Below are positions 8,069 to 48,600 of a stretch of DNA of 64,000 bases, in pieces. This DNA is from a virus. Location: the UHGV virus genome UHGV-0168042. One strand, given 5' to 3'. The notes beneath the pieces are model-generated. The model saw only the letters and a program-made list of their open reading frames with translations. It had not been told where the DNA came from and did not search any database. Numbering within the stretch: position 1 is the first letter of the stretch; every line of letters begins with the position of its first letter. The translations under genes were made by a program, and so were the position numbers.

Positions 8069-9249
8069 ATGTACTCCATGAACATTTTTTCAGCTTGTGC
8101 TGGTGGTGTTCCAGCCATGACAAGCGCATCAATGAACGCCTGCTTCTTCAGTGCGAACTGATCGGCAAGGCGTTGCTGAAGTTCCTTATTTTTCTGTTTC
8201 TCACGTTGCAAGGCCGCTTCTTTTGCAGCCGCCCGTTTTTTCTGTGCGTCTGACAACTTTCTGGCCCTGGTCAATTGGTCACGTAGCTTGTCGATATTGC
8301 CGTTGTCCTTTGCCAGTTTTGTACTTAAAGCTGCCTGGCGCTTCTGATAGAGCCTCCATTCGCGTTTGGCGGCTTCAACGTTTGTTTTACTGCTTCGATT
8401 GCGATTAAACTCCTTCTCGTCTTCTTTTGAGAAGTGTTTGGTTGTACGGCGGCGATCGTCACCAAATGCAATTTGCGTTGCAGCCTTTTGTAGCGCACGA
8501 GCAATACTCATTTGCCAACTGGCGGACTGTAACCGCGTCATTGAGTGGATCACGTGTTTACAGGCGACGCCTTGCAGCTTCGGGTTGCGAACTTTTGGAT
8601 AGGCGTATTCTTTTGGCGGGGCCAGGGCAAAGTTACCCGCAGTAGCGATGTAACGATACCAGTATTGATGACGACCACAGTCACAATCGAAAGACACTCG
8701 CCCGGCGCACAGTGATTTAGTGATTTTGAGAGCTGATTTATCGTCTTCTGCGATGTCATCGACCATCTGATCCCATTCTTCAAAGCGTATCCGGACGATA
8801 TGGTGCTGGTGGACGGATATATCCGATGCTTCTACGCGGATATTAATCACGTTGTGGCGAAGAGATACGGGGGTAGCTCTTTTGATACCAGATCCGTCAT
8901 CCACGGCGTTATTTGCACGCTTAATATCGATTGCCTGGCTGGATGCCACCAGCTGGGCGTATGTGATGCCAGCCGTCTTGCTGTCATATTTTTCGCGTGT
9001 TTTACTCCGTAGCTTTTCGAAACCTTTCAGGTCGTCTCGCGTGAAGAACGTGCCGCCTTTTTTCTTCCCTAACTTGAGAATATCTTCGGCGGATTTGTTC
9101 CTCAGTCCACCTGGCGTCAGCGTCCGGTGAGCTTGTCGGCGCTTACGGGTTTGTTCTTTCCTGATAATCTCGAATATACGCGTGAAGTCCTTAGAGGACA
9201 GACCGTCAGTGATATAGCGCCCGTCCTGGTTTTTCAGGAAATCAGGCAT
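8059..9249 (-). CDS. Hypothetical protein with SWIM-type zinc-finger-like motif and basic coiled-coil C-terminus
   Basis: 396 aa; FDCDCGRHQYW...CKHVIH fits a CxC-Xn-CxH motif; C-terminal 120 aa K/R/E/Q-rich. Confidence 0.45.
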   Translation of the reverse strand: MPDFLKNQDGRYITDGLSSKDFTRIFEIIRKEQTRKRRQAHRTLTPGGLRNKSAEDILKLGKKKGGTFFTRDDLKGFEKLRSKTREKYDSKTAGITYAQLVASSQAIDIKRANNAVDDGSGIKRATPVSLRHNVINIRVEASDISVHQHHIVRIRFEEWDQMVDDIAEDDKSALKITKSLCAGRVSFDCDCGRHQYWYRYIATAGNFALAPPKEYAYPKVRNPKLQGVACKHVIHSMTRLQSASWQMSIARALQKAATQIAFGDDRRRTTKHFSKEDEKEFNRNRSSKTNVEAAKREWRLYQKRQAALSTKLAKDNGNIDKLRDQLTRARKLSDAQKKRAAAKEAALQREKQKNKELQQRLADQFALKKQAFIDALVMAGTPPAQAEKMFMEYIKN

Positions 9250-14820: not shown

Positions 14821-14850
14821 AGTTAGATATTCAAAATTGATTTTCTAACA
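14821..14850. promoter_or_regulatory. Operator-like inverted repeat GTTAGA-N16-TCTAAC upstream of ref
   Basis: AGTTAGATATTCAAAATTGATTTTCTAACA, about 50-78 bp upstream of the ref ATG. Confidence 0.55.
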
Positions 14851-15044: not shown

Positions 15045-15668
15045 ATGGTGAAACGTGTTTTGAAAATTTACATCGCGGGGCCGATGACTGGTTATCCAGA
15101 TTACAACCGTGCTGCGTTTAATGCGAAAGCGAGCGAGCTGATGTCTGAAGGGCATATCGTTCTGAATCCAGCTGTGTTACCTGGTGGCCTTTGCCAGAGT
15201 GAATACATGGATATTTGCCTGGCAATGGTGCGTTCTGCTGATGCGATCTATCTGCTCAATCAATGGGAAGAATCGGTTGGTGCTCGCGCAGAGCACGCGC
15301 TGGCTGAAAAGCTGGGGCTGACTGTAATTTATGAGTCACAAACCAACATTGAATGCCAGGTTGCTCCGCATATTTACCGTGAACTGGTAAATGCGTTACG
15401 TGATGTTGCTATTGAATGTCACGGCACGGATCAGCTTCGCGCCCGCTTAAGCAAAACCCTTTCCAGTTACCTGTCTTTGGCTGAAGGATACAACCTCCGG
15501 CAGCGGAGAATGGTCAAATTAATCACGCGTTTATCTCAATCCCTGGCAAATGCCGAACCAACTAATCCGCTACCTAATGACGCAATGAATTATCTGAAGT
15601 CATGCGGCGTTGTTTCTGAAGATGCAGTTCGTTTTGTGGAGTTTATGTCTCAGAGGATGTCAGCGTGA
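15045..15668 (+). CDS. DUF4406 / nucleoside 2-deoxyribosyltransferase-like protein
   Basis: Internal Met start MVKRVLKIYIAGPMTGYPDYN; KIYIAGPMTG is the characteristic N-terminal motif of this family. Confidence 0.5.
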   Translation: MVKRVLKIYIAGPMTGYPDYNRAAFNAKASELMSEGHIVLNPAVLPGGLCQSEYMDICLAMVRSADAIYLLNQWEESVGARAEHALAEKLGLTVIYESQTNIECQVAPHIYRELVNALRDVAIECHGTDQLRARLSKTLSSYLSLAEGYNLRQRRMVKLITRLSQSLANAEPTNPLPNDAMNYLKSCGVVSEDAVRFVEFMSQRMSA

Positions 15669-15982
15669 GCTGGCGGGGATGGGGAAGGGCGGAAATCATG
15701 ATACTCCGCCAGTGCGCCGGGACTATGACAGTCGTGAGTATTGGGAGGCTGATCGGGCGTACCGGTAGTGCTGTCAGAACCAAAGCGCGGCAGCTGCGGA
15801 TCTGCATGATTCTGAAAGGAGACTTTCACCCGTCAGCCAAATACCGGCAGGGCGATATAGAACTGGCACGGCAGCTTCATCGGTGTGGTGTTCCCCGCCG
15901 TGAGATCGCAGAAAAACTCGAAATGCCCTTGAGCATGATTAATCAGTACGTTTATTTCGAAAGGAGAGTACATGAAGTCTGA
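15665..15982 (+). CDS. Small HTH-like regulatory protein
   Basis: 105 aa; overlaps upstream stop by 4 nt; ...GVPRREIAEKLEMPLSMINQYV resembles an HTH. Confidence 0.4.
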   Translation: MSWRGWGRAEIMILRQCAGTMTVVSIGRLIGRTGSAVRTKARQLRICMILKGDFHPSAKYRQGDIELARQLHRCGVPRREIAEKLEMPLSMINQYVYFERRVHEV

Positions 15983-16460
15983 AGGTTTAACGCCAGCACA
16001 ACTGGCAGAGCGTAACGCTGAGTATGTAACGGAAATTTCCCGACTTGAGAAAGAACGCTCGGCGCTGGCGGCGGAGAATGCTGGGCTGAAACATGCAATG
16101 GCTGTAACTCTTGAGCATGTGTCGGTCACGGATGCAGGGCAGGCCGGAGTTGCTGCAATGATTATCAACGATGCCCTGCACCACAGCGAAACTCCAGCCA
16201 CCGATGCTTTTCTGGCTGAAATTCGTGCGGAGGCTCGCAACGAGGGGATTAACTATACCGCAAGCCGTCTTGCTGCTGCTTTCAACCACGGATTTATCAA
16301 TAAGTCTTTACGTGAAGTTTTCGACGTTACACGCATGATTCTGTCAGCGAAAGAAGAGTTGGCTAATGAACCGCACCCGATTGATGGCCTGTCCGGTGAA
16401 TATGCGGAGAAATCCCTTGAAGAATGGGCGGAACAGATTCGCAAAGGAGCTGACAAGTGA
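15972..16460 (+). CDS. Ead/Ea22-like family protein (paralog 1)
   Basis: 162 aa; shares LAAENAGLK and PATDAFLAEIRAEA segments and C-terminal IRKG-x-x-K/Q end with paralogs at 16876, 17673, 22718, 23224. Confidence 0.5.
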   Translation: MKSEGLTPAQLAERNAEYVTEISRLEKERSALAAENAGLKHAMAVTLEHVSVTDAGQAGVAAMIINDALHHSETPATDAFLAEIRAEARNEGINYTASRLAAAFNHGFINKSLREVFDVTRMILSAKEELANEPHPIDGLSGEYAEKSLEEWAEQIRKGADK

Positions 16461-16867
16461 AGAAGATGATTTTTGTCGCGGCATTGTTGGTGAATATCCA
16501 ACAAGTGCATGCTTCAGCAGCTATTGTAGCCTCTACCGCCGCGACTACGGCTGCTGTAGCTGCTGCGAACTCTGCGAATATCGCAAACCAACAGGCACAG
16601 CGTGCTGCTAATGCATCAGCCAGCGTTCACTCAATCACCATTAAGAGCAGTAAGCAAAATCTGGGATTCATAACGTGCGGCACGCGTTCTAATGAAGCTG
16701 TAGGTTCACTTGGATGTACGGTATATGGGGGTAGTGAGAATAGAGAAATTCCATGGAAAACGTGGCCCGGATACGTTCTTGGCTCGAAGCTCCCGGCCAG
16801 TTATGAAGTAAACGCCGTATCGTTTGATCACTATAACGGCGTGGCAACGGTCTATTTTGCATATTGA
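16457..16867 (+). CDS. Secreted Ala/Thr-rich protein with signal peptide
   Basis: GTG start overlapping upstream stop; MKKMIFVAALLVNIQQVHA signal-like N-terminus. Confidence 0.45.
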   Translation: MKKMIFVAALLVNIQQVHASAAIVASTAATTAAVAAANSANIANQQAQRAANASASVHSITIKSSKQNLGFITCGTRSNEAVGSLGCTVYGGSENREIPWKTWPGYVLGSKLPASYEVNAVSFDHYNGVATVYFAY

Positions 16868-16875
16868 GGCTCCGC

Positions 16876-17676
16876 ATGAAATTCTCCAAATTTTCTGAGT
16901 TGGTGAATCGTATTTTGTTGAATCGTATTTTGTCCAACAACCACAGCCATCGTCGCGATATGGATGTAACGATCGTTGTTCATTCGCCTGGCAGCATTGG
17001 TTCAACACCCTCAGTTGAGGTTCAGTCAATTCACGCTGGTTTTGATTGGGATTCCGGGAAAGTGCTGATTTTCCCAGCACAGCCACTGACCACGCTAACA
17101 CCAGAACAGATTACTGATATTACTGATAGTGTGCGCAAAGGTCAGTCCTGGCACGCATATCAGGAATACAAGAAGCATCAAGAGCAGTTGGAAAAATTAT
17201 CGATTGAACTTGATACCGCAAAACAGCGCATTGCAGAGCTGGAGGGTAATCGCGCGGCGCTGGCTGCGGAGAATGCGAGACTGAAGGCGATATGTGAGGA
17301 TCGCCGCACGTTCATTATGAATGGCGTGCAGCTTGGTTTTATCAAGGTGCCAACAGTGGAAATAGATCCAGCTCTTGAAACAATTCGTATCGCCCTATCA
17401 CCACAAAAAACCACTCCTGCGACCGACACTTTCCTGGATGAAGTGAAGACTGAAGCACGCAAGGAGGGCGCTTACTTTGTGGCGAATAGAATGCTGGCTG
17501 CCTGGGAAGCTGGTTTTATTGATGATACTGCGAAGAACGCCGCGGATATTGCCCGGATGATTCTTACCTCTACTGAGTTTATGGCTAATGCGCGGGAAGG
17601 CGATTTTGACCGCTCATTCTCTGATGGTGTTCTCGAAGATATCGCTGAACAGCTTCGCAAAGGAGGCAGCCAGTGA
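16876..17676 (+). CDS. Ead/Ea22-like family protein (paralog 2)
   Basis: Track ORF from TTG 16864; ATG at 16876 preferred; contains AALAAENARLK and ends QLRKGGSQ. Confidence 0.5.
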   Translation: MKFSKFSELVNRILLNRILSNNHSHRRDMDVTIVVHSPGSIGSTPSVEVQSIHAGFDWDSGKVLIFPAQPLTTLTPEQITDITDSVRKGQSWHAYQEYKKHQEQLEKLSIELDTAKQRIAELEGNRAALAAENARLKAICEDRRTFIMNGVQLGFIKVPTVEIDPALETIRIALSPQKTTPATDTFLDEVKTEARKEGAYFVANRMLAAWEAGFIDDTAKNAADIARMILTSTEFMANAREGDFDRSFSDGVLEDIAEQLRKGGSQ

Positions 17677-18314
17677 GCGAGCTTTACTATCAGACGTTAC
17701 GTGAACGTTTTTCACCGAAACCAGCGCCTAAATGCTCTGTTTGTGGCGAGGAAATGTCAATGCAGCGCATATCTGGATCACATGTTGTTTATGCCTGTTC
17801 CGGCATGGAGGACGACGGATGCTTCAAAACTGGACGAACTTATGCTGACGAGCATTACAAAAAATCGCGCATAACAGTAGTTGATGATAGCGATCCTGAT
17901 GTGATTGAACTGCTGGAAGAGAACATGGAGATGGCTCTAACGCTTGAGAAGCTGCGTGTTGAGCTGGAGGCTGCTAAACAGCGTATTGCCGAATATGAAA
18001 GCAATTGCGGGGCGATGGTGGCGGAATGCCAAAGCAAAAAAGCAGCTCTTGAGGCAATTCTTAGCCATTGCCCAATTAATCATCCAGATATAGACATCGC
18101 ATGTATAGCGAACATCGCTCATAACGAATTAGGCGGGGCGAAAAGCACTACATCTAAGGCATACCTTGTAGAAATACAGGCACAAGGGGTGGAGGCATTC
18201 GCTTTGACGATGCGCGATACCGGAGATGATCCATTTTTTGATTCCGTTGCTTCTGCTTGCGCGGATGCAGCTGATAGGTTCGCTGCCCAGCTTCGAAAAG
18301 GAGGCAAACAGTGA
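17673..18314 (+). CDS. Ead/Ea22-like family protein with N-terminal zinc-ribbon (paralog 3)
   Basis: GTG start inside conserved junction; CSVCGEEM...YACSG...DGC; ends QLRKGGKQ. Confidence 0.5.
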   Translation: MSELYYQTLRERFSPKPAPKCSVCGEEMSMQRISGSHVVYACSGMEDDGCFKTGRTYADEHYKKSRITVVDDSDPDVIELLEENMEMALTLEKLRVELEAAKQRIAEYESNCGAMVAECQSKKAALEAILSHCPINHPDIDIACIANIAHNELGGAKSTTSKAYLVEIQAQGVEAFALTMRDTGDDPFFDSVASACADAADRFAAQLRKGGKQ

Positions 18315-18559
18315 GTAATACCGCACGACTACAGCTTGGTTTTTTACCGCTATCAAAAACCATCGTGTTGGCAAAAATGCGTGACTTAGGGGATGGAACA
18401 AAACGTCGTGTCGGCAATGATCGCGGTCGTGATGTAACCAACGAGGCCGCACAACTCGTTTGGCATCTAGTCATGGCTGAAGGCGGTGAAATTAATTGGG
18501 AGCTGGATGATGGTTCTCGCATGGTATTAAAGGCAGAAAAGCAGGAGCCACCACAGTGA
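18311..18559 (+). CDS. Hypothetical early protein
   Basis: 82-aa ORF, GTG start overlapping upstream stop. Confidence 0.4.
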   Translation: MSNTARLQLGFLPLSKTIVLAKMRDLGDGTKRRVGNDRGRDVTNEAAQLVWHLVMAEGGEINWELDDGSRMVLKAEKQEPPQ

Positions 18560-18849
18560 ATATCGACACCACGATAACGATTGATACGGCCCTAAATACC
18601 GGTCTGGCACTTCTCGGTTGGCTTTACATCATGTCCAGTACATGGCGATGGCTGGGTTCCATTTTCCTGAAACAGTGGAAAAAACGGCGCAAACAGGAAT
18701 TACGCCAGAAGGCATTAGAAGCGTTCTATGACGCATTTGAACTTAGCCGCATTGAACCAGGCACAACAGCCAGGATAGCGACAAAAGGCGACCTGATGAT
18801 AGTGATGTTCCGACAGGAGAAAGCAAATGGCAGCAAAGCGAATGACTAA
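18556..18849 (+). CDS. Hypothetical small membrane protein
   Basis: 97 aa; one hydrophobic segment (GLALLGWLYIMSSTW). Confidence 0.4.
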   Translation: MNIDTTITIDTALNTGLALLGWLYIMSSTWRWLGSIFLKQWKKRRKQELRQKALEAFYDAFELSRIEPGTTARIATKGDLMIVMFRQEKANGSKAND

Positions 18850-19051
18850 TCGCGAACTTGTTGATGCCGCGATTGAACTTGCTGGCGATTTTTATTCCAT
18901 GATGGGGTACACGCATCGCCCAGGCTTCAAATATTGGGAGTCTCCGCACCCGCAAGAGCAACGGGTATTTCAAATGGCCTGTCGCGCTTTTGAAGTTATT
19001 CGCGGTTCTGATGTGATGGACGCGGTTGCTGATTTGGAGGATGAAGAGTGA
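18827..19051 (+). CDS. Hypothetical early protein
   Basis: 74-aa ORF in the plus-strand operon. Confidence 0.35.
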   Translation: MAAKRMTNRELVDAAIELAGDFYSMMGYTHRPGFKYWESPHPQEQRVFQMACRAFEVIRGSDVMDAVADLEDEE

Positions 19052-19359
19052 ACACAATTAAAGAAATGCCGGTAGAACGTGATGAATATGGCTGCTGGAC
19101 ACATCCGGAGTATGAAAAGTTTTGCGCAGGTCGTGAATATATATCCACTGAGGAATTTGACGCCTGGATGAAGGAAAATAATCTTCAGTGGACTATTCGC
19201 AGTATGGATGAAGATGATTTTGATCTGGACGCAGCTGGTCCCGATATTGCCGCCTGGGAACCGGAGCGACCAGAGGGTGAAGGCTGGTTTGTTGGCTCTA
19301 TTCATGACACTGAAGATGGTCCAGTTTGTATCTGGCTGCGGGAGAAGGTTGCCGCATGA
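19048..19359 (+). CDS. Hypothetical early protein
   Basis: 103-aa ORF; acidic. Confidence 0.35.
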
Positions 19360-20048
19360 TCCAGACTATGCATGAAGTGAATTTATATAGCCGTATTGAT
19401 GGTTCTGGCTACAGAAACATATGGGTTGTTGGTGATCTGCATGGTTGCTACACCAGACTGATGTCCGAACTCCATCGTGTGGATTTTGACCCGGCGCAGG
19501 ATTTACTGATATCGGTTGGCGACCTTATCGATCGCGGTACTGAAAATGTCGAATGTCTGGAACTATTGCAGATGCCCTGGTTCAGGGCAGTAATGGGGAA
19601 CCATGAGCGGTTGATGCTTGATGCGTTAAGTCCTGATGGCAACGTGAATAACTGGCTAATGAATGGCGGACAATGGTTCTTCATGCTGGGCACTGATCAG
19701 GAAATATTAGCCAAGGCGCTGGTGGAGCTGGTAAAGCGTCTGCCATATATCATTGAGTTGAACACCGGGCATGAAACTATCGTTATAGCCCATGCCGACT
19801 ATCCAGGTGGAGAGTACCAGTTCGGTAAGGATGTGTCGTTTTTTGATGTTGTCTGGTCGCGCAGTCGCGTCGGTGATTCGATAGATGGCATTGGTGGAGA
19901 AATCACAGGCGCAGATCGCTTTATCTTTGGGCACACACCGGTACGAAGACCAAAAGCATACTGGAATCAGCACTACATAGACACGGGCGCGGTTTTTTGC
20001 GGAAATCTGACGCTAATGCAGGTGAAGGGAGGGCAGCTTAAAGTCTGA
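19356..20048 (+). CDS. Serine/threonine protein phosphatase (lambda PPase / PrpA-like metallophosphatase)
   Basis: Start ATG overlapping upstream TGA; [20 protein letters not shown] metallophosphoesterase motifs. Confidence 0.75.
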
Positions 20049-20074
20049 TCAAATCATTTACGCACTCAAAATCA

Positions 20075-20104
20075 CGTTAGAACATTGATTTTAGTTTTCT
20101 AACA
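20075..20104. promoter_or_regulatory. Operator-like inverted repeat GTTAGA-N16-TCTAAC upstream of the 20147 operon
   Basis: CGTTAGAACATTGATTTTAGTTTTCTAACA, about 45-70 bp upstream of the ATG at 20147. Confidence 0.55.
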
Positions 20105-20146
20105 TATTATTTTACCGATCGGAACAAAACAGAGTCGGTATGCATT

Positions 20147-21142
20147 ATGAGTGCAATAATCACCCCATATGTCGTAAATGAAACTGGTGTGGCTGTCTTT
20201 CCTGTAGATAAGCCCACCAGCAATTACATCGGCGCAGGACGCCGTTTTCTTATATCCCCATTGCCGCGTGAACAGGCTGAAAACACCCCTGATGGTGTCG
20301 TTGACCTGAATTATTCACTGGTTGCCAACCAGTCACTGGCACCCTTTTTTCAAAGTGAGCGTGTATTTAACGCGTTAGGTGGTGAGGATTCTCTCGTTCA
20401 CTGGGTTAGCACCAACATTCACGATTGCCAGGCGCATGATAAGCGCGATTGCAGCCACCAGCTAACCACCCATTTCTATAACGGTTCTGCCGTTCGCCTG
20501 TGCTGGAAGCATGATGCGGAATACATGATGAAGGGATACGGCAAGCTGGAAGACCAACTGTCACGGAATCGCGCCAACTGGATTATGAACTGGGCTGCCA
20601 GCGAGTTAAAACTTCCGCCAGATCGCGATCTGAGCATGGTTGAACTCACCTTTTGGGCCATTCGCCGGAATCTTAAAGACGAACTGCCTGATGAAGCTGG
20701 TCGCATTGCATTTTGTCAGCCAAAAACTGAAATCCCTACCGGTACGCTGAAAGAATCAGATATCACCTGGGAGCACAGTACCCGCGAGCTGGTGGACATA
20801 ACCGCAGAGCAGATCGTCAACCTGTCTGTAGATGAGGATTCCGGCCTGCTTTATATGCGCCGACCAAAAGCGGTCCTCGGTAAAAGCCCGGCTTATCTCC
20901 GGTTTGTGGTTTCTCGTCCGTGCATCGGATGCGGTGGCAAAGTTAACCACCCGTTCATGTACCGCGCCCGCTCGTTAAACGAACACGACCGCTGGGCTGT
21001 TCCTCTTTGCGATGACTGCGCCAGAAGCGCAGAAAACGATGTTCGGGCATGGGAAAAAGCACATGGCATACGCCTTTACGTAGCCGCTAACCAGCTTTTT
21101 GACTTCGCCATCGAGCGCGGAGTGATCACGTTCAATAACTGA
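20147..21142 (+). CDS. DUF968-like protein with C-terminal Ref/HNH-like zinc motif
   Basis: 331 aa; C-terminal CIGCGGKVNHPF...NEHDRWAVPLCDDC resembles the Ref HNH-like motif. Confidence 0.45.
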   Translation: MSAIITPYVVNETGVAVFPVDKPTSNYIGAGRRFLISPLPREQAENTPDGVVDLNYSLVANQSLAPFFQSERVFNALGGEDSLVHWVSTNIHDCQAHDKRDCSHQLTTHFYNGSAVRLCWKHDAEYMMKGYGKLEDQLSRNRANWIMNWAASELKLPPDRDLSMVELTFWAIRRNLKDELPDEAGRIAFCQPKTEIPTGTLKESDITWEHSTRELVDITAEQIVNLSVDEDSGLLYMRRPKAVLGKSPAYLRFVVSRPCIGCGGKVNHPFMYRARSLNEHDRWAVPLCDDCARSAENDVRAWEKAHGIRLYVAANQLFDFAIERGVITFNN

Positions 21143-21158
21143 TGAGGTGGATCAAAAA

Positions 21159-21839
21159 ATGAAAGAACGCGGGATGATTTTTAACGATGAGATGGTCAGG
21201 GCCATCCTCGAAGGAAGGAAGACGCAGACTCGCCGACCTGTAAAAAATGTCAGGGCCGATAACTGCCTAGTTATCCGTAAACCGACAAAGAAACGCAATG
21301 GTGTCTATACCCACGTTATGGATGCACCTGAACATGGTTTATGCCCGTTCGGTAACGTTGGTGATCGCATATGGGTCCGTGAGGCGTGGGCGATATTAGG
21401 CAATGAGGATGGTTGCAGTGTGGACTGGAACGACAACCTTTGTCGTGGCGATGAGAAGAACGCAGCAAGGATTTATCGGGCCAGTTGTGAGCAAAAGCCT
21501 GGTGATTACGGTTTGTGGTCGATACCCGATGATGCCGACTGGAAACCTCACACTGTGAATGAAAAGTTTGATGGCGGGTGGCGTCCATCAATTCACATGC
21601 CGCGCTGGGCTTCGCGTATTTTGCTGGAAATTACCGACGTGCGTGTGGAACGGCTGCGTGATATGAGCGAGGCAGATGCTAAAGCAGAAGGCGCATCTCC
21701 GGCGATGTACAAAATTACGCCGCCGGAAGCTGTTTATCGCGTTGGTTTTGGTGACATCTGGCGCAGTATTTACGGGCAGGATAACTGGCTATCTAACCCG
21801 TGGGTATGGGTAATCGAGTTTAAGCGCGTTCAGGAATAA
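21159..21839 (+). CDS. ASCH-domain-like protein
   Basis: Preferred ATG start with GAGGTGG RBS; N-terminal MVRAILEGRKTQTRR fits the GxKxxExR ASCH signature loosely. Confidence 0.4.
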   Translation: MKERGMIFNDEMVRAILEGRKTQTRRPVKNVRADNCLVIRKPTKKRNGVYTHVMDAPEHGLCPFGNVGDRIWVREAWAILGNEDGCSVDWNDNLCRGDEKNAARIYRASCEQKPGDYGLWSIPDDADWKPHTVNEKFDGGWRPSIHMPRWASRILLEITDVRVERLRDMSEADAKAEGASPAMYKITPPEAVYRVGFGDIWRSIYGQDNWLSNPWVWVIEFKRVQE

Positions 21840-21842
21840 ACC

Positions 21843-22721
21843 GTGAGTATGCATCAAGTTGTCAGCTTTTCAGGTGGACGAACATCGGCTTATCTCGTTC
21901 ATCTGATGGAAGCACAGCGAAAAGCTGGCGCTAGCGTCCATTTCATTTTTATGGATACCGGCTGTGAACATCCTCTGACGTATCGCTTTATTCGTGAGGT
22001 TGTGAAGTTCTGGAATGTACCGCTAACGGTGTTGCAGGTCGATATAAATCCAGAACTTGGGCAGCCAAATGGTTATACGGAATGGGAACCAAAGGATATT
22101 CAGACGCGAATGCCGGTGCTTAAACCGTTTATGGACATGGTTAAAAAGTACGGTACGCCATACATCGGCGGCGCGTTCTGTACTGACAGGCTAAAACTAA
22201 CCCCTTTCACGAAATATTGCGATGACCATTTTGGGCGAGGGAATTACATCACATGGCTGGGTATTCGTGCGGACGAACCCCGTAGGCTGAAACCGAAACC
22301 GGGCGTCCGGTATCTTGCCGAGCTGTCAGATTTTGATAAGTCGGATGTTATCCGGTGGTGGCGAAAACAACCTTTTGATTTGCAAATCCCGGAGCACCTC
22401 GGGAACTGTGTTTTTTGCATCAAAAAGTCAACGCAAAAGCTGGGGCTTGCATGTAAAGACGAACCAGGTCTGATGCGGGTTTTTAATGAACTGGTTACAG
22501 GCAAACACGTCAGGGATGGTCATCGCAGAACAGATAAAGACGTTATGTACCGTGGTCACCTGACGCTTGACGGGATTGCCAGAATGTATGCCGACAGCGA
22601 CTACAGAAATTTGTATCAGGCGATGGTGCAGGCCAAGCGGTTTGATACTGGTTCGTGTTCCGAATCATGTGAAATCTGGGGTGACCAATTGGAGTTGAAA
22701 TTCGAAGAGGTAGTGGCATGA
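21843..22721 (+). CDS. PAPS reductase-like PP-loop ATP pyrophosphatase family protein
   Basis: 292 aa; N-terminal SFSGGRTS PP-loop (SGGxDS-type) motif. Confidence 0.65.
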   Translation: MSMHQVVSFSGGRTSAYLVHLMEAQRKAGASVHFIFMDTGCEHPLTYRFIREVVKFWNVPLTVLQVDINPELGQPNGYTEWEPKDIQTRMPVLKPFMDMVKKYGTPYIGGAFCTDRLKLTPFTKYCDDHFGRGNYITWLGIRADEPRRLKPKPGVRYLAELSDFDKSDVIRWWRKQPFDLQIPEHLGNCVFCIKKSTQKLGLACKDEPGLMRVFNELVTGKHVRDGHRRTDKDVMYRGHLTLDGIARMYADSDYRNLYQAMVQAKRFDTGSCSESCEIWGDQLELKFEEVVA

Positions 22722-23227
22722 CAAACAAAATTGACTATCAAAAGCTTCGTGAAATTGCTGAAAAAACAAAAATTGCTGGTGAAGCGCCTGTAATGCCTTT
22801 CGATCAGCGAATTAATGCGCTTAACGATTTTATGAAGCACTTTTCGCCAGATATCGCGTTGGCATTATTGGATGAAGTTAAACGCCTGGAGGACACAAAT
22901 ATTGATGCTATGTGTCGAATTGCAGAGCTTGAGACTAATCTCGCGGCGCTGGCAGCGGAGAATGAGCTGGCTCGTAAGGCAGTTCAGGCATTCTGCGATG
23001 TTGTTGGCGACAACACCGAGGTTATCGCTGAGGTGGTTGGGCGAGATGGCGTTCTGGTTATTTTGGAGGCCATGAAGGCAACAGGAAATATGCCAGCCAC
23101 CGATGCTTTCCTGGCTGAAGTACGGGCGCAGGGCGTGGAGATGTTTGCGGAGTGTGCATACACGCTTGAACATCATGATCACGCAGTAGCCTTCGCCGCT
23201 GAGCTTCGCAAAGGAGGCAACCAGTGA
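22718..23227 (+). CDS. Ead/Ea22-like family protein (paralog 4)
   Basis: 169 aa; KIDYQKLREIAEK N-terminus, AALAAENELARK, PATDAFLAEVRAQG, ends ELRKGGNQ. Confidence 0.5.
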   Translation: MTNKIDYQKLREIAEKTKIAGEAPVMPFDQRINALNDFMKHFSPDIALALLDEVKRLEDTNIDAMCRIAELETNLAALAAENELARKAVQAFCDVVGDNTEVIAEVVGRDGVLVILEAMKATGNMPATDAFLAEVRAQGVEMFAECAYTLEHHDHAVAFAAELRKGGNQ

Positions 23228-23919
23228 GCAAGATTGACTATCAAGAACTGCGCGAGGCGGCGGAGAAGGCTACGAAAGGTAAGTGGGCTGTTGAATTCGA
23301 CGATGAGATTTACTCCACTGACGGCATAAACCATGAGCAAATAGCTATGGTGTTCAGTGAAAACGAATCTCGTGATGCTGAATTCATCGCCGCAGCCAAT
23401 CCGGCTACCGTCTTGGCGCTGCTGGATGAACGGGAAAGAAACCAGCAATACATCAAACGCCGCGACCAGGAGAACGAGGATATTGCGCTAACGGTAGGGA
23501 AACTGCGTGTTGAGCTGGAAGGCAAAGACAGCAAAATAGCCAATCTTACCGCCGAACGCGATGCTCTTCGTGAAGGTGAGATGGGCGACGCTAGGCATAG
23601 CAACACACGGGCCGCAGCTGATATCTACTTCCAACTGGTCGAGGAGTGCGAAATTCCTGCTGGCGGATCTCTGGTCGAGTACGTTGACGATATGCGCGAG
23701 AAGCTGGAAGCCGCAGAGAAGCGCATTGCAGAGTTAGAAAGTGGTTCTCAGGCACAAAAGTTAGTTGAAGCAATCATTGTTGCGATAGAAAACGAACAGG
23801 AAAGGCTTTTTGATGAAGATTACCTAATGGATTCGAAAGAATGCATTGACGTAATTCGTGAAGAAGTAAAGCGATGGAATGATTCCCGCGCCGCTGGCAT
23901 TCGCATCAAAGGAGAGTGA
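23224..23919 (+). CDS. Ead/Ea22-like family protein (paralog 5)
   Basis: 231 aa; GTG start in conserved junction; MSKIDYQELREAAEKATKGKW. Confidence 0.5.
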   Translation: MSKIDYQELREAAEKATKGKWAVEFDDEIYSTDGINHEQIAMVFSENESRDAEFIAAANPATVLALLDERERNQQYIKRRDQENEDIALTVGKLRVELEGKDSKIANLTAERDALREGEMGDARHSNTRAAADIYFQLVEECEIPAGGSLVEYVDDMREKLEAAEKRIAELESGSQAQKLVEAIIVAIENEQERLFDEDYLMDSKECIDVIREEVKRWNDSRAAGIRIKGE

Positions 23920-23920
23920 T

Positions 23921-24184
23921 ATGGCAACTTTGACAAAAAAAGAACAAGCATGGTTGAGCGAATTACAGGACGTTCTTGATCGCTGCCCATCACCGAAAAA
24001 AATTGGTTTTTACACCATTGGCGATAAAAGCATTTACCTGTATGACCTGCGCCGCATGGATGAAATCATGGAGGCTCTTGATAATCGTTCGTCAATGGAT
24101 TGGTGTGTTGCTGTTCATGATATGAATGCCGGATTTGATGAAAAGATTTTATTCCCCTCATCAGTTGAAAGCACTGCGGGTTAA
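23921..24184 (+). CDS. Hypothetical early protein
   Basis: ATG preceded by AGGAG; 87 aa (MATLTKKEQAWLSEL...). Confidence 0.4.
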   Translation: MATLTKKEQAWLSELQDVLDRCPSPKKIGFYTIGDKSIYLYDLRRMDEIMEALDNRSSMDWCVAVHDMNAGFDEKILFPSSVESTAG

Positions 24185-24194
24185 GGAGTAACAC

Positions 24195-25385
24195 ATGACC
24201 ACTATTACCAAAGAACGTATTGAATTGTTCATTAAAAATCCGCTTGAAAACGGGCTTACCCGTGGTGAACAAATGGAACTGGCACGGATTGCGCTGGCAT
24301 CGCTGGAAGCAGATCCAGTTAAACGAGTTAACTCAGATCAGATGCGCCGAGTCTGCTTAGAAGCTAATCGCCATTTAGATAAATATGACGCGATGGCGAA
24401 AGAGGTAAATAAGTTGCTTGGCCGCATCGCCCCGCCAGCGCCGGTAGTGCCGGAAGAAATCAGTACGACCCACACAATGCTGCCCGCCATGAGTGATCAG
24501 TTGATGGCGTTCGGTTATGTGAAGGGGTGGAATGCCTGCCGCGCGGCTATGCTTCATGCCGGAAACTTTCGGAAAAACGCGAATTCGTCAACCAATAATT
24601 TTCGGGATATTGCGGAAACGTCAACCAACTCTCCGGTAATTCCTGGTGAGGTGTTGTCCGCAATCCTGAAGTTTGCCAGAGTTCGTGCTGATTTCGATGA
24701 TTTTGACGGCGACAGACGAGGTATCGGTGATTGTCTGGATGAGGCTGAGCAAGAGCTTATCGTTACCATTAACAAATATGCCAGCCAGTTGGCAGCAGAA
24801 CCGATAGCGACTAATGACGTTCGAGAGCAGCAGACAGCCGTTCCACCAATACAGGCTGATGTCGCACAAGCAATTGAAAATCTCAAGCAGAAGTTAGTGG
24901 AATGCAATCGCTATAACTACTGCGCAGATGCAGTTAAAGGCGTAGAGGATGCCTGCCGTGCTGTTAGCTATAGCCAAGCCGACAATCAACCAGCATCTGG
25001 CAACCAGGCTGCCGAATCCAATCGCGGTAATGAGTGGACCGGCAATCCTGATATTGATAACGCCATCATCATGCTCGACCGCATAGATACGCTGGAAAAT
25101 TGCGATGATGACCGTATTGAGGCTGTTAAGGCTGTTTTGCGCAGACTGGCTGTCAACTCTCCGGTAACTCCGGATGGCTGGATAAGCTGTAGTGAGCGAA
25201 TGCCGGATACCAAAACAGCCGTTCTTGTTGCCGTGGAGTTTGACAGGAAAGGTGACTGGCGAATGAAATGGGCGACTTACATCCCTGGTCATCCTGACGC
25301 TAATGATGGGTGGATAATTCCTGGTGCGTCGTGGAAACCGTCACACTGGATGCAGCTACCAGAACCGCCACAGGAGGCGAAATGA
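24195..25385 (+). CDS. DUF551-like C-terminal domain protein
   Basis: 396 aa; C-terminal GWISCSERMP...WATYIPGHPDANDGWIIPG...SHWMQLPEPP resembles DUF551. Confidence 0.45.
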   Translation: MTTITKERIELFIKNPLENGLTRGEQMELARIALASLEADPVKRVNSDQMRRVCLEANRHLDKYDAMAKEVNKLLGRIAPPAPVVPEEISTTHTMLPAMSDQLMAFGYVKGWNACRAAMLHAGNFRKNANSSTNNFRDIAETSTNSPVIPGEVLSAILKFARVRADFDDFDGDRRGIGDCLDEAEQELIVTINKYASQLAAEPIATNDVREQQTAVPPIQADVAQAIENLKQKLVECNRYNYCADAVKGVEDACRAVSYSQADNQPASGNQAAESNRGNEWTGNPDIDNAIIMLDRIDTLENCDDDRIEAVKAVLRRLAVNSPVTPDGWISCSERMPDTKTAVLVAVEFDRKGDWRMKWATYIPGHPDANDGWIIPGASWKPSHWMQLPEPPQEAK

Positions 25386-25642
25386 TGGATGTAAAAGAGA
25401 AGGTTTTGCAGGTGATGCGTTCCCGTGCTGCCCTACAAGAGAAAGCTCTCGGCGGTGAATATCCATTCACGATAGCAACCTGGAATCTGCGGTTGGCAAT
25501 GGAGAAGGAATTTCCTGATGAAGAATGGCGTTCGGCAGATTTGCGCAAAATTCTTATGGAGCTGGCTAAAGACGGAACAGTATCCAAAGATACCCATGCC
25601 AGCCGGATTGGTCAGGCGGTATGGAGACTGGAGGTGAGGTAA
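25382..25642 (+). CDS. Hypothetical early protein
   Basis: ATG overlapping upstream TGA (ATGA); 86 aa. Confidence 0.4.
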   Translation: MMDVKEKVLQVMRSRAALQEKALGGEYPFTIATWNLRLAMEKEFPDEEWRSADLRKILMELAKDGTVSKDTHASRIGQAVWRLEVR

Positions 25643-25923
25643 TGGCTAACCTGCAACTTGCCGTTAAAGGTGAATACTTCGATGCCATGATTCGAGGGGA
25701 GAAAACGGAAGAGTATCGCCTGTGTAATGACTACTGGAATAAGCGCCTCGTTAACCGTAAGTATGACCGCCTGATTATCACAAAGGGATATCCGAAGCGC
25801 GAAGACTTCAGTCGCAGAATTGACGTCCCGTATAACGGATATGAAATAAAAACAATCACACATCCGCACTTCGGTGATAAACCGGTAAAGGTGTTCGCGA
25901 TAAAAGTGAAGATTAATAGCTAA
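25642..25923 (+). CDS. ASCH-domain-like small protein
   Basis: Start overlaps upstream TAA; GEYFDAMIRGEKTEEYR contains GxKxxExR signature. Confidence 0.4.
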   Translation: MANLQLAVKGEYFDAMIRGEKTEEYRLCNDYWNKRLVNRKYDRLIITKGYPKREDFSRRIDVPYNGYEIKTITHPHFGDKPVKVFAIKVKINS

Positions 25924-29838: not shown

Positions 29839-30516
29839 TCACTCCACAACAAACCAGTCACAGGCCAGCAGGTCGCCAACTGAAGGCACCCACGGAACAA
29901 CTACACCTTGTGCATTTTTTAAGGCGAAATAAGCACCATACGGAACGAGGTCGCCGGGGAAATATCCCTTAATGGCTTCCATTCGTGCCGGGTACTGTCC
30001 TTCAGGAACCAGCCAGCAGAATTGGTCTTCGCCGTTCCACCCGCGTCGAGCAACTTTCTTGCCATCCTTCAGCCACATCAGCGCGTCAGAAAAGTCGGCT
30101 GCTTCAAGGTCGATTTCTTCTTGCTGGGTGGTGATGCCACCAGCAGAAATAGTTACGCTCCCGGTAAGATTAATCATCTCGCCGTTGTCATCCGTAATGA
30201 TGACCGTGGTTCCATTTTTGGAGGCGTCGTTAACCAGGCCATAGCGTTCCTCAAATGGTTTCTCCGGGACATAGAACAGATAACCGTTTTCATAAACGAT
30301 CAGATACCCGCCAGTTTTTGGTCGGTGTTTTTGTAAAAAAATTGCGTCAACACAAACTGTTGCCCCTTTAGGTTCAACGAGTTCGATGCTGCCCCAAAGT
30401 GGGGCATCAGTTACTCCGAAAATAACAACATTTTTGATTTTCGATGCACTAACGTTTTTGTGAGCTTTGTATTTGGGAAGGAGCTTAAAAAGCTCTTTCG
30501 TTGCCATGTTATTCAT
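29839..30516 (-). CDS. Hypothetical phage protein
   Basis: 225-aa ORF; C-terminal MWLKDGKKVARRGW motif is shared with the small ORF at 53195-53395. Confidence 0.4.
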   Translation of the reverse strand: MNNMATKELFKLLPKYKAHKNVSASKIKNVVIFGVTDAPLWGSIELVEPKGATVCVDAIFLQKHRPKTGGYLIVYENGYLFYVPEKPFEERYGLVNDASKNGTTVIITDDNGEMINLTGSVTISAGGITTQQEEIDLEAADFSDALMWLKDGKKVARRGWNGEDQFCWLVPEGQYPARMEAIKGYFPGDLVPYGAYFALKNAQGVVVPWVPSVGDLLACDWFVVE

Positions 30517-30530
30517 AGTCTTTTCTCTGC

Positions 30531-31025
30531 TTATAACTTTTCGTACTGAAGCGGTGTACGCTTGATTTCAACGCGGTCTTCCGATGTACTACCAAAGCCA
30601 CCAGCACCTCGCTCTGTTTCATCGAGTTCATCAACTTCTACCAGCGATACCGGTTCAACACGCTCAAAAATGCCTTGCATGACAGCCATTCCAGGCTTGA
30701 GGCAAATGCCTTCCCCGCCGGGATCAGCAATCAGTTTTGCCATGATTTCACCGCGATAATCGGAGTCGATAATTCCTACGCAGTTAGCCAGGCGAGTATG
30801 TTTTTTGCAGCCCAATCCGGATCGTGGATAGAGTTTCAGACACCAGCCGGGCGGGATCTCCATAGCCAGTCCGGTATACACCCACCAGCTTGAGGAAATT
30901 GCCCCATTGCTATCGACGCATGGTTTTATTTCAACAGCCTCAAAATCCATCGCCGCCGATCCGGAGGTGGCATAAGCTGGAAGTTTTGCTGCCGGATGTA
31001 GGCGTTTCACTTTTACGTAAATCAT
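30531..31025 (-). CDS. dut: dUTPase (deoxyuridine triphosphate nucleotidohydrolase)
   Basis: 164 aa; PRSGLG, GIIDSDYRGEI and RGAGGFGSTS dUTPase motifs. Confidence 0.8.
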   Translation of the reverse strand: MIYVKVKRLHPAAKLPAYATSGSAAMDFEAVEIKPCVDSNGAISSSWWVYTGLAMEIPPGWCLKLYPRSGLGCKKHTRLANCVGIIDSDYRGEIMAKLIADPGGEGICLKPGMAVMQGIFERVEPVSLVEVDELDETERGAGGFGSTSEDRVEIKRTPLQYEKL

Positions 31026-45690: not shown

Positions 45691-48600
45691 TTAGGCCGCA
45701 TCGGCGATTATTTTACGCAGTTCATCTACCGAGTAACGCGTAGATACCATCCACGCCGGACGGTCAAAGTTCACATCAGCAACCGGGTTTGCTTCAAAAT
45801 TCCAGAAACGCCCGCCAATCTTCTTAATCGCGTCTTTGGCGTTCCGTATTGTCGAGGAACCTGGCTGGTCGGCAATGAGATAAACCGCGCCAACGTCTTC
45901 GCTGACGCTCCACCAGCGCCCGCGAACACGCGCCTTAGCGCGAATCGGCTTATCATTAACCACAATGATATAGTCATCATTCGCCGCTTCATCAGCTCTG
46001 GCTTCAGCCACTGCCGCCTGCTCTTCTCTTTTGCTTTCAGCCTGCTCAAGCCTTTCCGCGATCTCTGATTCAGTGGCCCCGCCGTTTTTCAGCGATACAT
46101 AGTCCTGCCATGTTGCCGATTTGAGCGTATCCGGCAACTCATTCACATAGTCGCCGTCTTTCAACTCACGGGCGCGACGGGTAGCCATTTCTACCAGGCG
46201 ATTAACAGAAACAGCATCAGCAAAATCGTCCTTACTAATGTGTTTTTCATCAAATGCATTGATGACAGCCCCCACCTTAATCCACTGTGCTGCTGGTGAT
46301 TCCAGGGGGTTATCAGCCTGAACAATGGCAAGTTTCGCTCCATCTACCCCATTATTCGCCAGCTGTTCCAGTGCCGCCCATCCATCTGCATCACTGAGTG
46401 ATTTATATTGCTCAAACAATGCATCGCGCCAGGCCACCAGCGCAGAACGTGTTTTTTCGATCTTCGCCTTAATTTTCGCGATCTTGACCTGATTAAACAT
46501 CCGTTCAATATCATCGATATTGCTAAAGGCTTTCATCCTGCCCTGGAATAAACGGTATGCCAGCACGGTCCTCCAGAATGATTCCAGACCTTCTCCGGAC
46601 GGTTTGCGGAACAAGCTAAGAATATCTTCAGAAGTGACTTTATTAAGCGAACGACCTGACAGACCACGCCCAGCCATCCAGTTTTCGAACTCCTGGGCAA
46701 CATCATCCATCGTTGCCTGTGCGCCCCATGCCTGCATTCCCTGGATGTAATCATACCCATACAATGCCTGGAGGAATCCCTCGCCGTCCACGATATTCAG
46801 CGGGTTATCACTGGCTTGTATTTTTGCCACTTCACGCTTCAGCGCCTCGTCGTTGCCATCAGGATATATCCATCGCTCAGGTGCTATATCCGATGCTCGC
46901 CCGATTTTTTGGCCTATCACGCCATCATAGGTCGATGACAGCGCGATCTGACCATCATCTGTGCGATAAGCCCAGTATTTAATAGCTGACCCACCGCCCC
47001 ATGCATTACCAGGTTTACCAGCAATAACATTCATTACCCCATTGCGAATAGCATCATAGAACTGATCGCGAGTAAGTATTGTTGATAGCTGGTGGCACTG
47101 AACACCACGCGCAGCCGTTGCGCGCGATTCAGCTACCCCCTCTTCAAAAGTTACCGCTTCAATCACTGAGTCAAACGGTAATGTTACGATTGATCCAGGT
47201 GATCGAGCGTAACGGCTTGCTCTATCCAGCCAGGCGATACGACAGAGGTATTGTGCTTTTTCACCATCAATTTTTTCCACCCGGACAATCGCTGTTGTTT
47301 CGCGATCATCAATGACTGCACGGTAATAACTACCTTTATGCAACAGAATGTTCTTGTCAGTGCGCATATATTCTTGCGGGTTCTGAATAACATCGATACT
47401 GATATCCAGCACACCAGACTTAATAGCGCGCTCCACATCACCACGAGAGCGTTTCATTATGGTATCCGCGTCTTTTGCCCTGGTGATCGCAAACCGCAGC
47501 ACCCGCGCACGTTTTCTGTAGCTACTCAACTGCTCAAGCGCGTATTTTTGCCCATTCCTGTTCGTACCCGCTTTTATCAGGTCGTCAAGATTGCGCTGGT
47601 AATACTCTATCTGTTCCATCGCGCTTTTCAGTTCTGTCTCCATCATGCCGATATCTTTTCCGGCGGCGTTTGCCGCTTTCAGGTAGATATCGAGAGCATT
47701 GTTGGCCTCGCGCTGTGCTTTCAGTTTCAGACGTTCTTCACGCTCTTGCGCCTGGCGAGTCATGATTGCGCGGCGTTCTTCCGGGTTTGCCGCCAGCATA
47801 ATGGCGCGTTCATCAGCATCATCCGCATCACCATTGGCGATCTCTGACATGTCGGAGGTCATCACCATCTTGATCCAGTCTTTCTTACGTTTCAGCGTAT
47901 CCAGACGGAAGTCGTCGAATGTGCCTTTGCCACAATAGTAGTGAACATTGACCTTCTCTTGCGGTGAACCTACGCGCGCACCGCGCCCATTTCGTTGGTC
48001 GATACTGGCTGGTGTCCAGGGTAGTGTCAGGTGGTGGATATCGGTTGTCCCGATGTGCAGGTTAATACCTACTTCAGCCTTCTTGTTACAGATTATGATA
48101 CGCGTGCGACCTTCGTTATAGTCGGCGGCAATACCTTCCATGCCCTCAAGGCCAGCATCATTTTTAGCTGAGAGATAATCCTCATATTGGGCAAGTTTGC
48201 TGTAGTAGGTTTCCCATGCCCCTTCTTTGTATTCACCGTTTTTGTTTGGAGTAGGTTCGGTCGGCTTATTCACCTTCTTCAGCTTGATGCCGCCAGCCTG
48301 GCTAACTGTCGTCGCATTGATAATGCCAATCTCCTGCTCCGGCATTTGCAGTGCACTGGCGATAATACGGCGCAGCTTCTGGTGCTGGGCTTTTTCATCA
48401 ATAAAGACGATCTGCTTACCGTTCTTCAGACCTTCACGAAGATTTTCGATCAGCGCGGCATACTTCGGCGGGATGGGGTGCGATACCTGCTGCATATCAA
48501 TGCCGGCAGCCGCAATGGCCTTCAGTATTTCAGCTTCCAGTTCAATGCTGGCACGTATTTCAACATGCGTCGGATGTTCACTAAAAGCGGTCTTCACTAC

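Follow-up and report, generated by a model that had tools for sequence, protein, structure and literature searches.

The virus genome UHGV-0168042 encodes, at positions 15045-25923 of the 64,000-nucleotide (nt) stretch analysed here (the window), a packed array of genes in which a DUF968 protein, a divergent ASCH-like protein of the PmgT family and a NinC-like PP-loop ATP pyrophosphatase follow one another behind a palindrome. A first-pass annotation had proposed that these three genes, with a DUF4406 gene and a second ASCH-like gene nearby, could constitute a DNA or RNA modification or anti-defence module. All of the genes that it named lie on the + strand at or near the positions that it had assigned to them, and profile searches essentially confirm its fold and family calls. 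Because the three genes assort independently in comparative genomics, the triad is not a module. NinC is the only one of the three for which there is outside evidence for DNA modification or anti-defence, and it is the one credible anti-restriction candidate in the set. The palindrome copies and the triad genes are as follows.

20076..20103, + strand: 28-bp palindrome GTTAGAACATTGATTTTAGTTTTCTAAC, a candidate repressor operator, 44 bp before the ATG of the DUF968 gene
14822..14849, + strand: second copy of the palindrome, between the divergent ref and DUF4406 genes
2722-2749: third copy of the palindrome, directly upstream of an rdgC-like gene
20147..21142, + strand: DUF968 protein, PdcB-like, 331 amino acids (Pfam PF06147), with a Cys4 zinc scaffold and the catalytic histidines lost
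21159..21839, + strand: PmgT-like protein, 226 amino acids; ATG at 21159 preceded by GAGGTG (mechanical open reading frame (ORF) start at 21147, 230 amino acids)
21849..22721, + strand: NinC-like PP-loop ATP pyrophosphatase of the PAPS-reductase/DndC/SspD superfamily, 290 amino acids; ATG at 21849

The likely starts at 21159 and 21849 were read from the junction sequences and agree with RefSeq gene lengths.

Genomic setting and a recurrent palindrome

DNA matching identifies the window as a D6-like, P1-related Escherichia coli phage-plasmid. The megablast matches of 15045-25923 include Escherichia phage D6, with 94% identity where the two sequences correspond, phages of the P1 type and a large number of E. 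coli and Salmonella plasmids that are ~92 kb in size and non-mobilisable. The 2.6-kb triad is matched at 99.8% by plasmid pZ1323HEC0010-2. The arrangement of the triad is already present in public plasmids, and its genes are all new alleles of RefSeq-annotated families that lambda or P1 made known long ago. Gene order runs from icd/ash and ref through a long same-strand array to hot/humD/phd/doc at the end of the array, which parallels the ppp-pmgT-hot-humD-phd-doc segment of P1 and therefore places the locus among the early accessory genes of a phage-plasmid of the D6 type. Because small exchangeable genes are packed closely throughout the 15-28 kb stretch, in a single array on the same strand, the adjacency of any of them carries little weight.

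The palindrome, GTTAGA-N16-TCTAAC, occurs three times in the window, compared with 0.03 copies expected by chance. The copy at 20076..20103 overlaps a weak sigma-70-like promoter, read by eye (TTGATT, 17 nt, TATTTT), and every D6-type relative that was fetched has it at the same offset, ~44 bp ahead of the DUF968 gene; it is absent from P1-type loci. On the P1 map, pmgT sits behind the C1 operator Op88, and P1 ref is likewise preceded by a C1 operator. In the window, the positions equivalent to P1 C1 operators are taken by the palindrome. The C1 operator consensus ATTGCTCTAATAAATTT has no match in the window with up to three mismatches allowed, and the immunity type is therefore not that of P1. 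Given this conserved placement and the position of P1 ref and pmgT behind C1 operators, the palindrome is a good candidate for the operator of a D6-type repressor, which would bind it. The palindrome 44 bp upstream fits the operator previously annotated ahead of the DUF968 operon, and it is not a match to the P1 C1 consensus. A putative repressor regulon would comprise rdgC, ref/DUF4406 and DUF968/pmgT/ninC. The gene just downstream of the third copy (1802-2707, - strand) belongs to the RdgC family (Pfam E = 6 × 10−102).

Families and motifs of the three proteins

Positions 21849..22721 encode the lambda NinC orthologue (NinC being nin-region ORF-290), 79% identical without gaps over 290 amino acids. 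Its N-terminal PP-loop, SFSGGRTS (SGGxxS), is invariant in 13 diverse homologues, and six cysteines are conserved (C113, C126, C189xxC192 and C272xxxC276). The fold is that of the adenine-nucleotide alpha-hydrolases; it is APS reductase-like and also resembles the Fe-S-dependent thiolases NcsA and TtuA, and APS and PAPS reductases are the closest solved structures. The initial assignment to the PP-loop ATP pyrophosphatases of the PAPS-reductase family is thus upheld by motif, fold and orthology. Membership of a narrower family is a different matter. The Pfam PAPS_reduct domain matches the N-terminal third only (37.7 bits, profile positions 3-66 of 175), the NCBIfam CysH equivalog NF002537 gives 21.9 bits against a cut-off of 154, and the protein is, by these sequence scores, not CysH. 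The best defence profile in PADLOC is SspD (E = 1.8 × 10−13, a partial match over residues 5-148), followed by BrxP and DndC, all of which act in DNA phosphorothioation; the score against the DndC family (TIGR03183) is 17.7 bits, compared with a cut-off of 290.4. The flanking 3 kb and 9 kb in near-identical plasmids have no annotated cysteine desulfurase, DndD/SspC ATPase or DndE/SspB, and no Dnd or Ssp partner gene was found among the NinC neighbours in 46 diverse loci.

Relatives of the NinC-like protein connect it with DNA. Homologues are fused to Dam-family methyltransferases (PF05869) in three proteins (P0215, P0235 and P0237), and in a Mixta tenebrionis prophage (locus L198, 2402-5701) an uninterrupted ORF of 1,099 amino acids joins a C5 cytosine methylase, a NinC-like domain and a D12 N6 adenine methylase; this putative fusion could also be a sequencing artefact. 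P0215 is p0018 of Vibrio phage 44E38.1/41E34.2, a PAPS-Dam fusion, and a sensitive phage into which p0018 and p0019 were moved infects a Dnd-carrying host (Piel et al., bioRxiv 10.1101/2021.05.05.442762). Over the entire PAPS part of p0018, identity with the window protein is 55%, and all conserved motifs are included. Together, the methyltransferase fusions, the homology to anti-Dnd p0018 and the SspD profile match support a DNA-directed anti-restriction role for the NinC-like protein, the chemistry of which we infer below. The proposed link with DNA modification or anti-defence accordingly finds support for NinC and not for the three-gene set. We also considered p0019, the partner in the Vibrio anti-Dnd pair, as a relative of the ASCH or DUF968 protein and rejected it, as it is a DUF6475 protein unrelated to either.

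In a separate observation, at least six low-coverage contigs from unrelated taxa (Pseudomonas, Shewanella, Oceanobacillus and Neobacillus among them), several of them 48.4-48.5 kb in length, carry a NinC whose level of identity is exactly that of lambda NinC; most likely, these represent contamination of the assemblies with phage lambda.

The DUF968 protein matches its Pfam family over a wide margin (PF06147, E = 6 × 10−45, 153.7 bits compared with a gathering cut-off of 27.8), and P1 PdcB is a full-length homologue at 39% identity. Its C terminus aligns with the Ref nuclease of the window itself (hhalign E = 9 × 10−4), with which it has a CxxC...CxxC scaffold in common. The zinc part of the Ref-like HNH zinc motif ascribed to this protein is therefore present, but its catalytic histidines, HH and those of CHxxLH, are absent. 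In an alignment with canonical DUF968 proteins, DPHH...KAHD...PLCxxCHxxLH becomes xP(F/Y)(M/L)Y...EHD...PLCxxCAxxA in the PdcB-like subfamily, DPHH being replaced by (H/R/T)P(F/Y)(M/L)(Y/F), which reads HPFMY in the window protein. The window protein has CARSAEN in place of CHxxLH, so that only the four cysteines and the EHD motif remain, and the same histidine contrast is seen in the alignment with Ref. The general-base histidine and the metal-binding His/Asn of an HNH/His-Me finger are thus lacking from the aligned sequence, and the protein is probably not an active HNH nuclease. Because the zinc scaffold is kept and the catalytic histidines are lost, this PdcB-like DUF968 protein is more likely to be a DNA binder than a nuclease. 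The Orf-HNH architecture described in the literature for Gram-positive DUF968 proteins was also considered; it is inapplicable here, as no similarity between the N-terminal region and lambda NinB/Orf was detectable (hhalign E = 0.36). In RefSeq, the gene begins 14 codons past the ATG at 20147 (region 20147-20189; 8106-8148 in locus L001). Because the first 14 residues are conserved with P1 PdcB (MxAIITPxV...), the longer ORF, from the ATG at 20147, is probably right.

For the PmgT-like protein, the orthologue is P1 PmgT (68% identity over residues 1-220, E = 5 × 10−108), whose label 'putative morphogenetic' is a historical name only. The protein itself stays below the Pfam threshold for ASCH (PF04266, E = 0.004, 18.2 bits compared with 21.2), but the modelled structure and the relatives agree with the ASCH-like call made for this operon gene. 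Foldseek with the AF2 model (core pLDDT 70-90, residues 79-156 poorly modelled) returned only ASCH proteins as best matches, with the N4-acetylcytidine (ac4C) amidohydrolase YqfB at the top (probability 0.97, E = 0.017), and 17 of 100 representatives of the PmgT family match Pfam ASCH at E ≤ 0.01 (best 2.9 × 10−6), no other family recurring. Two segments, GRKTQTRR and VWVIEFK, resemble ILAGRKTITIR and YVIEFK of YqfB (checked in the sequence), and hhalign of the family against YqfB yields a local match of only 28 columns (E ~0.002). Searches of the PDB with either the PmgT-like or the DUF968 protein gave chance-level matches only as single sequences, and profile searches gave no matches. The PmgT-like family is very large, with 43,570 clusters at 50% identity reaching E ≤ 0.001, and no domain fusions occur among the best 150 representatives (79-314 amino acids, most ~200), all of them too short for a second domain. 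We found nothing functional in the literature on phage ASCH or PmgT proteins. By analogy with ASCH/PUA domains, a weak suggestion is that the PmgT-like protein may act on a modified nucleoside or nucleic acid, by binding or by deacylation.

Two further observations concern pmgT. Similarity to many plasmids breaks off inside the gene, at about 21342 and 21578 of the window (1196 and 1432 of the triad query), which suggests that its conserved central block is a recombination joint between alleles. P1 pmgT itself (locus L246, 10489-11418) is annotated as 309 amino acids, with family similarity extending only to about residue 232; past this point the protein diverges and overlaps pmgU, and the C terminus of the P1 reference may be frameshifted or extended.

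Co-occurrence and neighbouring genes

The distribution of the three families shows how rarely they travel together. NinC follows the PmgT-like gene in 7 of 77 viral PmgT-like loci (45-100% identity) and is missing from the other 70, and DUF968 precedes it in 12 of the 77; its upstream neighbours are pap and pmgS in P1-type loci and, elsewhere, SSB, an HD-domain protein and others. Viewed from NinC, 80 close loci include PmgT in 12 and DUF968 in 5, with neither within ~5 kb in 67, most of which are prophage-type loci among ead/Ea22 and DUF551 genes. Across ~50 NinC loci of different species, a PmgT-like gene lies within 4 kb in 2 and DUF968 in 4, none of them adjacent, and ~44 have neither partner. 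NinC is thus mostly found alone, in lambdoid prophages. Of 365 PLSDB plasmids with a match to some part of the triad, only 14 contain 80% or more of it; the sub-combinations seen are DUF968 alone, DUF968 with PmgT, PmgT with NinC and PmgT alone, with recurrent breakpoints inside the pmgT-like gene. Near-identical NinC genes (98-99%) stand beside PmgT alleles of 57, 69, 84 and 100% identity, a signature of recombination. These counts give no support to a functional DUF968/ASCH/PAPS-like module.

The DUF4406 and second ASCH-like genes were named as associates of the triad, and this association is equally unsupported: DUF4406 belongs to a separate transcription unit, and no link to the triad was found beyond its placement 5 kb upstream. 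The genes around the triad are listed here.

15045..15668, + strand: DUF4406 protein (Pfam PF14359), C-terminal half without a characterised domain; first gene behind the palindrome at 14822
19326..20048, + strand: Ser/Thr phosphatase, homologue of lambda NinI and P1 Ppp (Pfam Metallophos, E = 1.4 × 10−15); last gene of the upstream unit
22718-23227 and 23224-23919, + strand: two ead/Ea22-like genes (Pfam Ead_Ea22)
23879-24184, + strand: ORF of 101 amino acids with no family match
24195-25385, + strand: DUF551 gene (Pfam DUF551)
25642..25923 (ORF from 25621), + strand: weakly ASCH-like small protein, 93-100 amino acids (Pfam ASCH, phrog_625)

The presence of a DUF4406 gene near the triad is borne out by Pfam PF14359, which is matched over its full 91-position profile (E = 9 × 10−34, 116.2 bits compared with 22). 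Nucleoside 2-deoxyribosyltransferase-like profiles match the N-terminal 100 residues, phrog_355 ('nucleoside 2-deoxyribosyltransferase') with E = 4 × 10−43, and nothing functional on DUF4406 was found in the literature. The second ASCH-like gene is less clear-cut: RefSeq calls its 94-99% identical relatives 'ASCH domain-containing', but its only Pfam match is ASCH at E = 0.053. Its segment IRGEKTEEYR fits the motif GxKxxExR. The phosphatase is 63% identical to lambda NinI (tblastn). Downstream of NinC, from 22718 to 25385, lambdoid 'ea'-type genes continue the same packed array, and the ead/Ea22 and DUF551 families likewise flank NinC in Stx prophages. The genes between and after the named ones, with ead/Ea22, DUF551, DUF4752, eaa and others of this sort, belong to the exchangeable 'ea/nin' repertoire typical of lambdoid phages.

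Outside the array, the gene at 29839-30516 (- strand) encodes a protein of 225 amino acids with a Thoeris anti-defense 2-like domain (Pfam PF11195, E = 2.3 × 10−22), a recognised anti-defence domain just beyond the borders of the region analysed, and it adjoins a dUTPase gene (30531-31025, - strand). Further on, an ORF of 2,278 amino acids (45691-52527, - strand) combines N6 DNA methylase and SNF2/helicase domains, and we take it to resemble the P1 anti-restriction protein DarB.

Interpretation and comparison with known systems

We consider it probable that the region is a mosaic accessory array of a D6-like phage-plasmid in which the triad genes are adjacent by chance and NinC is an anti-defence candidate. 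Orthology, motifs, fold, methyltransferase fusions and the lack of co-inheritance are established here; operator function, targets and chemistry would be as follows. The 15-28 kb stretch would be a repressor-controlled early region, the equivalent of the P1 ppp-pmgT-hot-humD-phd/doc segment, made up of individually exchangeable genes, many of which lambdoid phages also have in their nin and ea regions. Three such genes, which happen to be neighbours in a minority of these plasmids, would make up the triad. NinC would adenylate a substrate and transfer a group, possibly sulfur, to phage DNA, or would otherwise act on DNA, and in doing so may protect it from modification-dependent host defences, for example of the Dnd or Ssp type.

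Several points weigh against this interpretation. In P1/D6-type plasmids, NinC, when present, lies directly downstream of the PmgT-like gene in 12 of 13 loci; we read this as a fixed insertion slot, although a functional preference is weakly possible. The C-terminal 27 residues of the NinC model have a pLDDT below 50, which limits the three-dimensional view of the cysteine cluster. Lambda can do without ninC on laboratory hosts, as would fit an accessory gene, and this is silent on what its role is. The anti-Dnd phenotype maps to two genes jointly, one of them Dam-fused, and the PAPS domain was not separated (bioRxiv 10.1101/2021.05.05.442762). Finally, all three window genes are known here from sequence and from models.

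The idea of a dedicated three-gene nucleic-acid modification or anti-defence module draws on the tight packing of the genes (gaps of 16 and 9 nt) behind a common operator-like palindrome, on SspD as the best defence-family profile of NinC, on the position of NinC behind the PmgT-like gene described above and on the sporadic occurrence of DUF968 or PmgT-like genes 1-3 kb from NinC in six unrelated prophages. DUF968 would then bind or nick DNA as SspB or DndE do, NinC would be an SspD/DndC-like adenylating sulfur transferase and the ASCH protein would read or edit the product. We regard both the module and this allocation of roles as quite unlikely: in most close and diverse loci NinC has neither partner, most PmgT-like genes lack NinC, few plasmids keep the triad, PmgT alleles beside identical NinC differ by up to 43%, the Vibrio anti-Dnd partner is a DUF6475 protein, neither a cysteine desulfurase nor a DndD/SspC-type ATPase is annotated nearby and the window DUF968 protein lacks the HNH catalytic histidines. 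A more speculative version, to which we assign a small chance, takes NinC, including that of lambda, as a stand-alone DNA-marking enzyme that would modify the backbone or a base in an ATP-dependent, Fe-S- or persulfide-mediated reaction and thereby overcome defences that depend on phosphorothioate or other modifications. A single repressor-controlled promoter in D6-like plasmids would express it together with two partners that target or proof-read the mark, namely the PdcB-like protein, a nuclease-dead HNH DNA binder, and the PmgT-like ASCH reader.

The same palindrome before rdgC-like, ref and DUF968 genes could instead point to an accessory set for recombination and repair, in which NinC and PmgT act on repair intermediates or tRNA and not in anti-defence. 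DUF968 and NinC come from lambdoid nin regions, near Orf/NinB, Rap/NinG and RusA, the literature ties DUF968 to recombinases through fusions and nin-region neighbours, and SSB, exonuclease, RecT/Erf and NinG adjoin NinC in diverse prophages. We nevertheless find this reading unlikely, as the N-terminal region of the DUF968 protein has no NinB/Orf similarity detectable by hhalign and the methyltransferase fusions and anti-Dnd data are more specific than a gene neighbourhood. Highly improbable, in our assessment, is an auxiliary metabolic role for the PAPS-reductase-like gene, in which it would raise assimilatory sulfate reduction in the host as an analogue of cysH. PHROG 424 and 33262 are named PAPS reductase and filed under 'moron, auxiliary metabolic gene', and the closest solved structures agree with that name, but the CysH equivalog score falls far short of its cut-off and the Pfam match covers part of the profile only. 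The canonical SGGxxS PP-loop is retained, the C terminus reads GSCSESCE and not ECGLH, the C-terminal motif of CysH, and the three kinds of DNA methyltransferase to which homologues are fused suggest DNA, not sulfate, as the substrate.

Overall, the preferred reading, a chance-assembled array with NinC as an anti-defence candidate, describes an ordinary phage mosaic, and its main value is negative: adjacency in packed accessory arrays is not to be taken for a pathway. NinC, a lambda gene listed as function-unknown since the genome was sequenced, is the useful lead. The 55% identity to p0018, the three kinds of methyltransferase fusion and the intact PP-loop and cysteines make it testable cheaply in lambda and in P1/D6. 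If the proposed role is true, NinC would represent a widespread class of phage counter-defence enzyme that is now mislabelled 'cysH' in viromics.

Comparison with known systems places each protein beside a characterised relative and also sets it apart. As His-Me finger relatives of the DUF968 protein we compared P1 PdcB, YdfU of the E. coli Qin prophage (DUF968) and P1 Ref; canonical DUF968 proteins and Ref have an HH general base and CHxxLH histidines, all of which are missing from the PdcB-like subfamily. The PmgT-like protein has its 68% identity with P1 PmgT, and its fold and weak profile matches point to the ASCH domain, with a score under the Pfam ASCH threshold. Its length is roughly double that of YqfB and includes an insert of ~75 residues modelled at low confidence. 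In fold and motif NinC is like the PP-loop enzymes DndC and SspD, but it stands outside those systems: DndC, SspD and BrxP belong to the same superfamily and have the PP-loop, whereas the window protein scores far under their family cut-offs and has no DndA/D/E or SspA/B/C nearby. Compared with Vibrio p0018, it has neither the Dam domain nor a DUF6475 neighbour. The closest counterpart is lambda NinC, which has the same 290-residue size, PP-loop and cysteine pattern; the lambda gene lies between ninB and ninD, whereas the window gene stands behind pmgT in a P1/D6-type plasmid.

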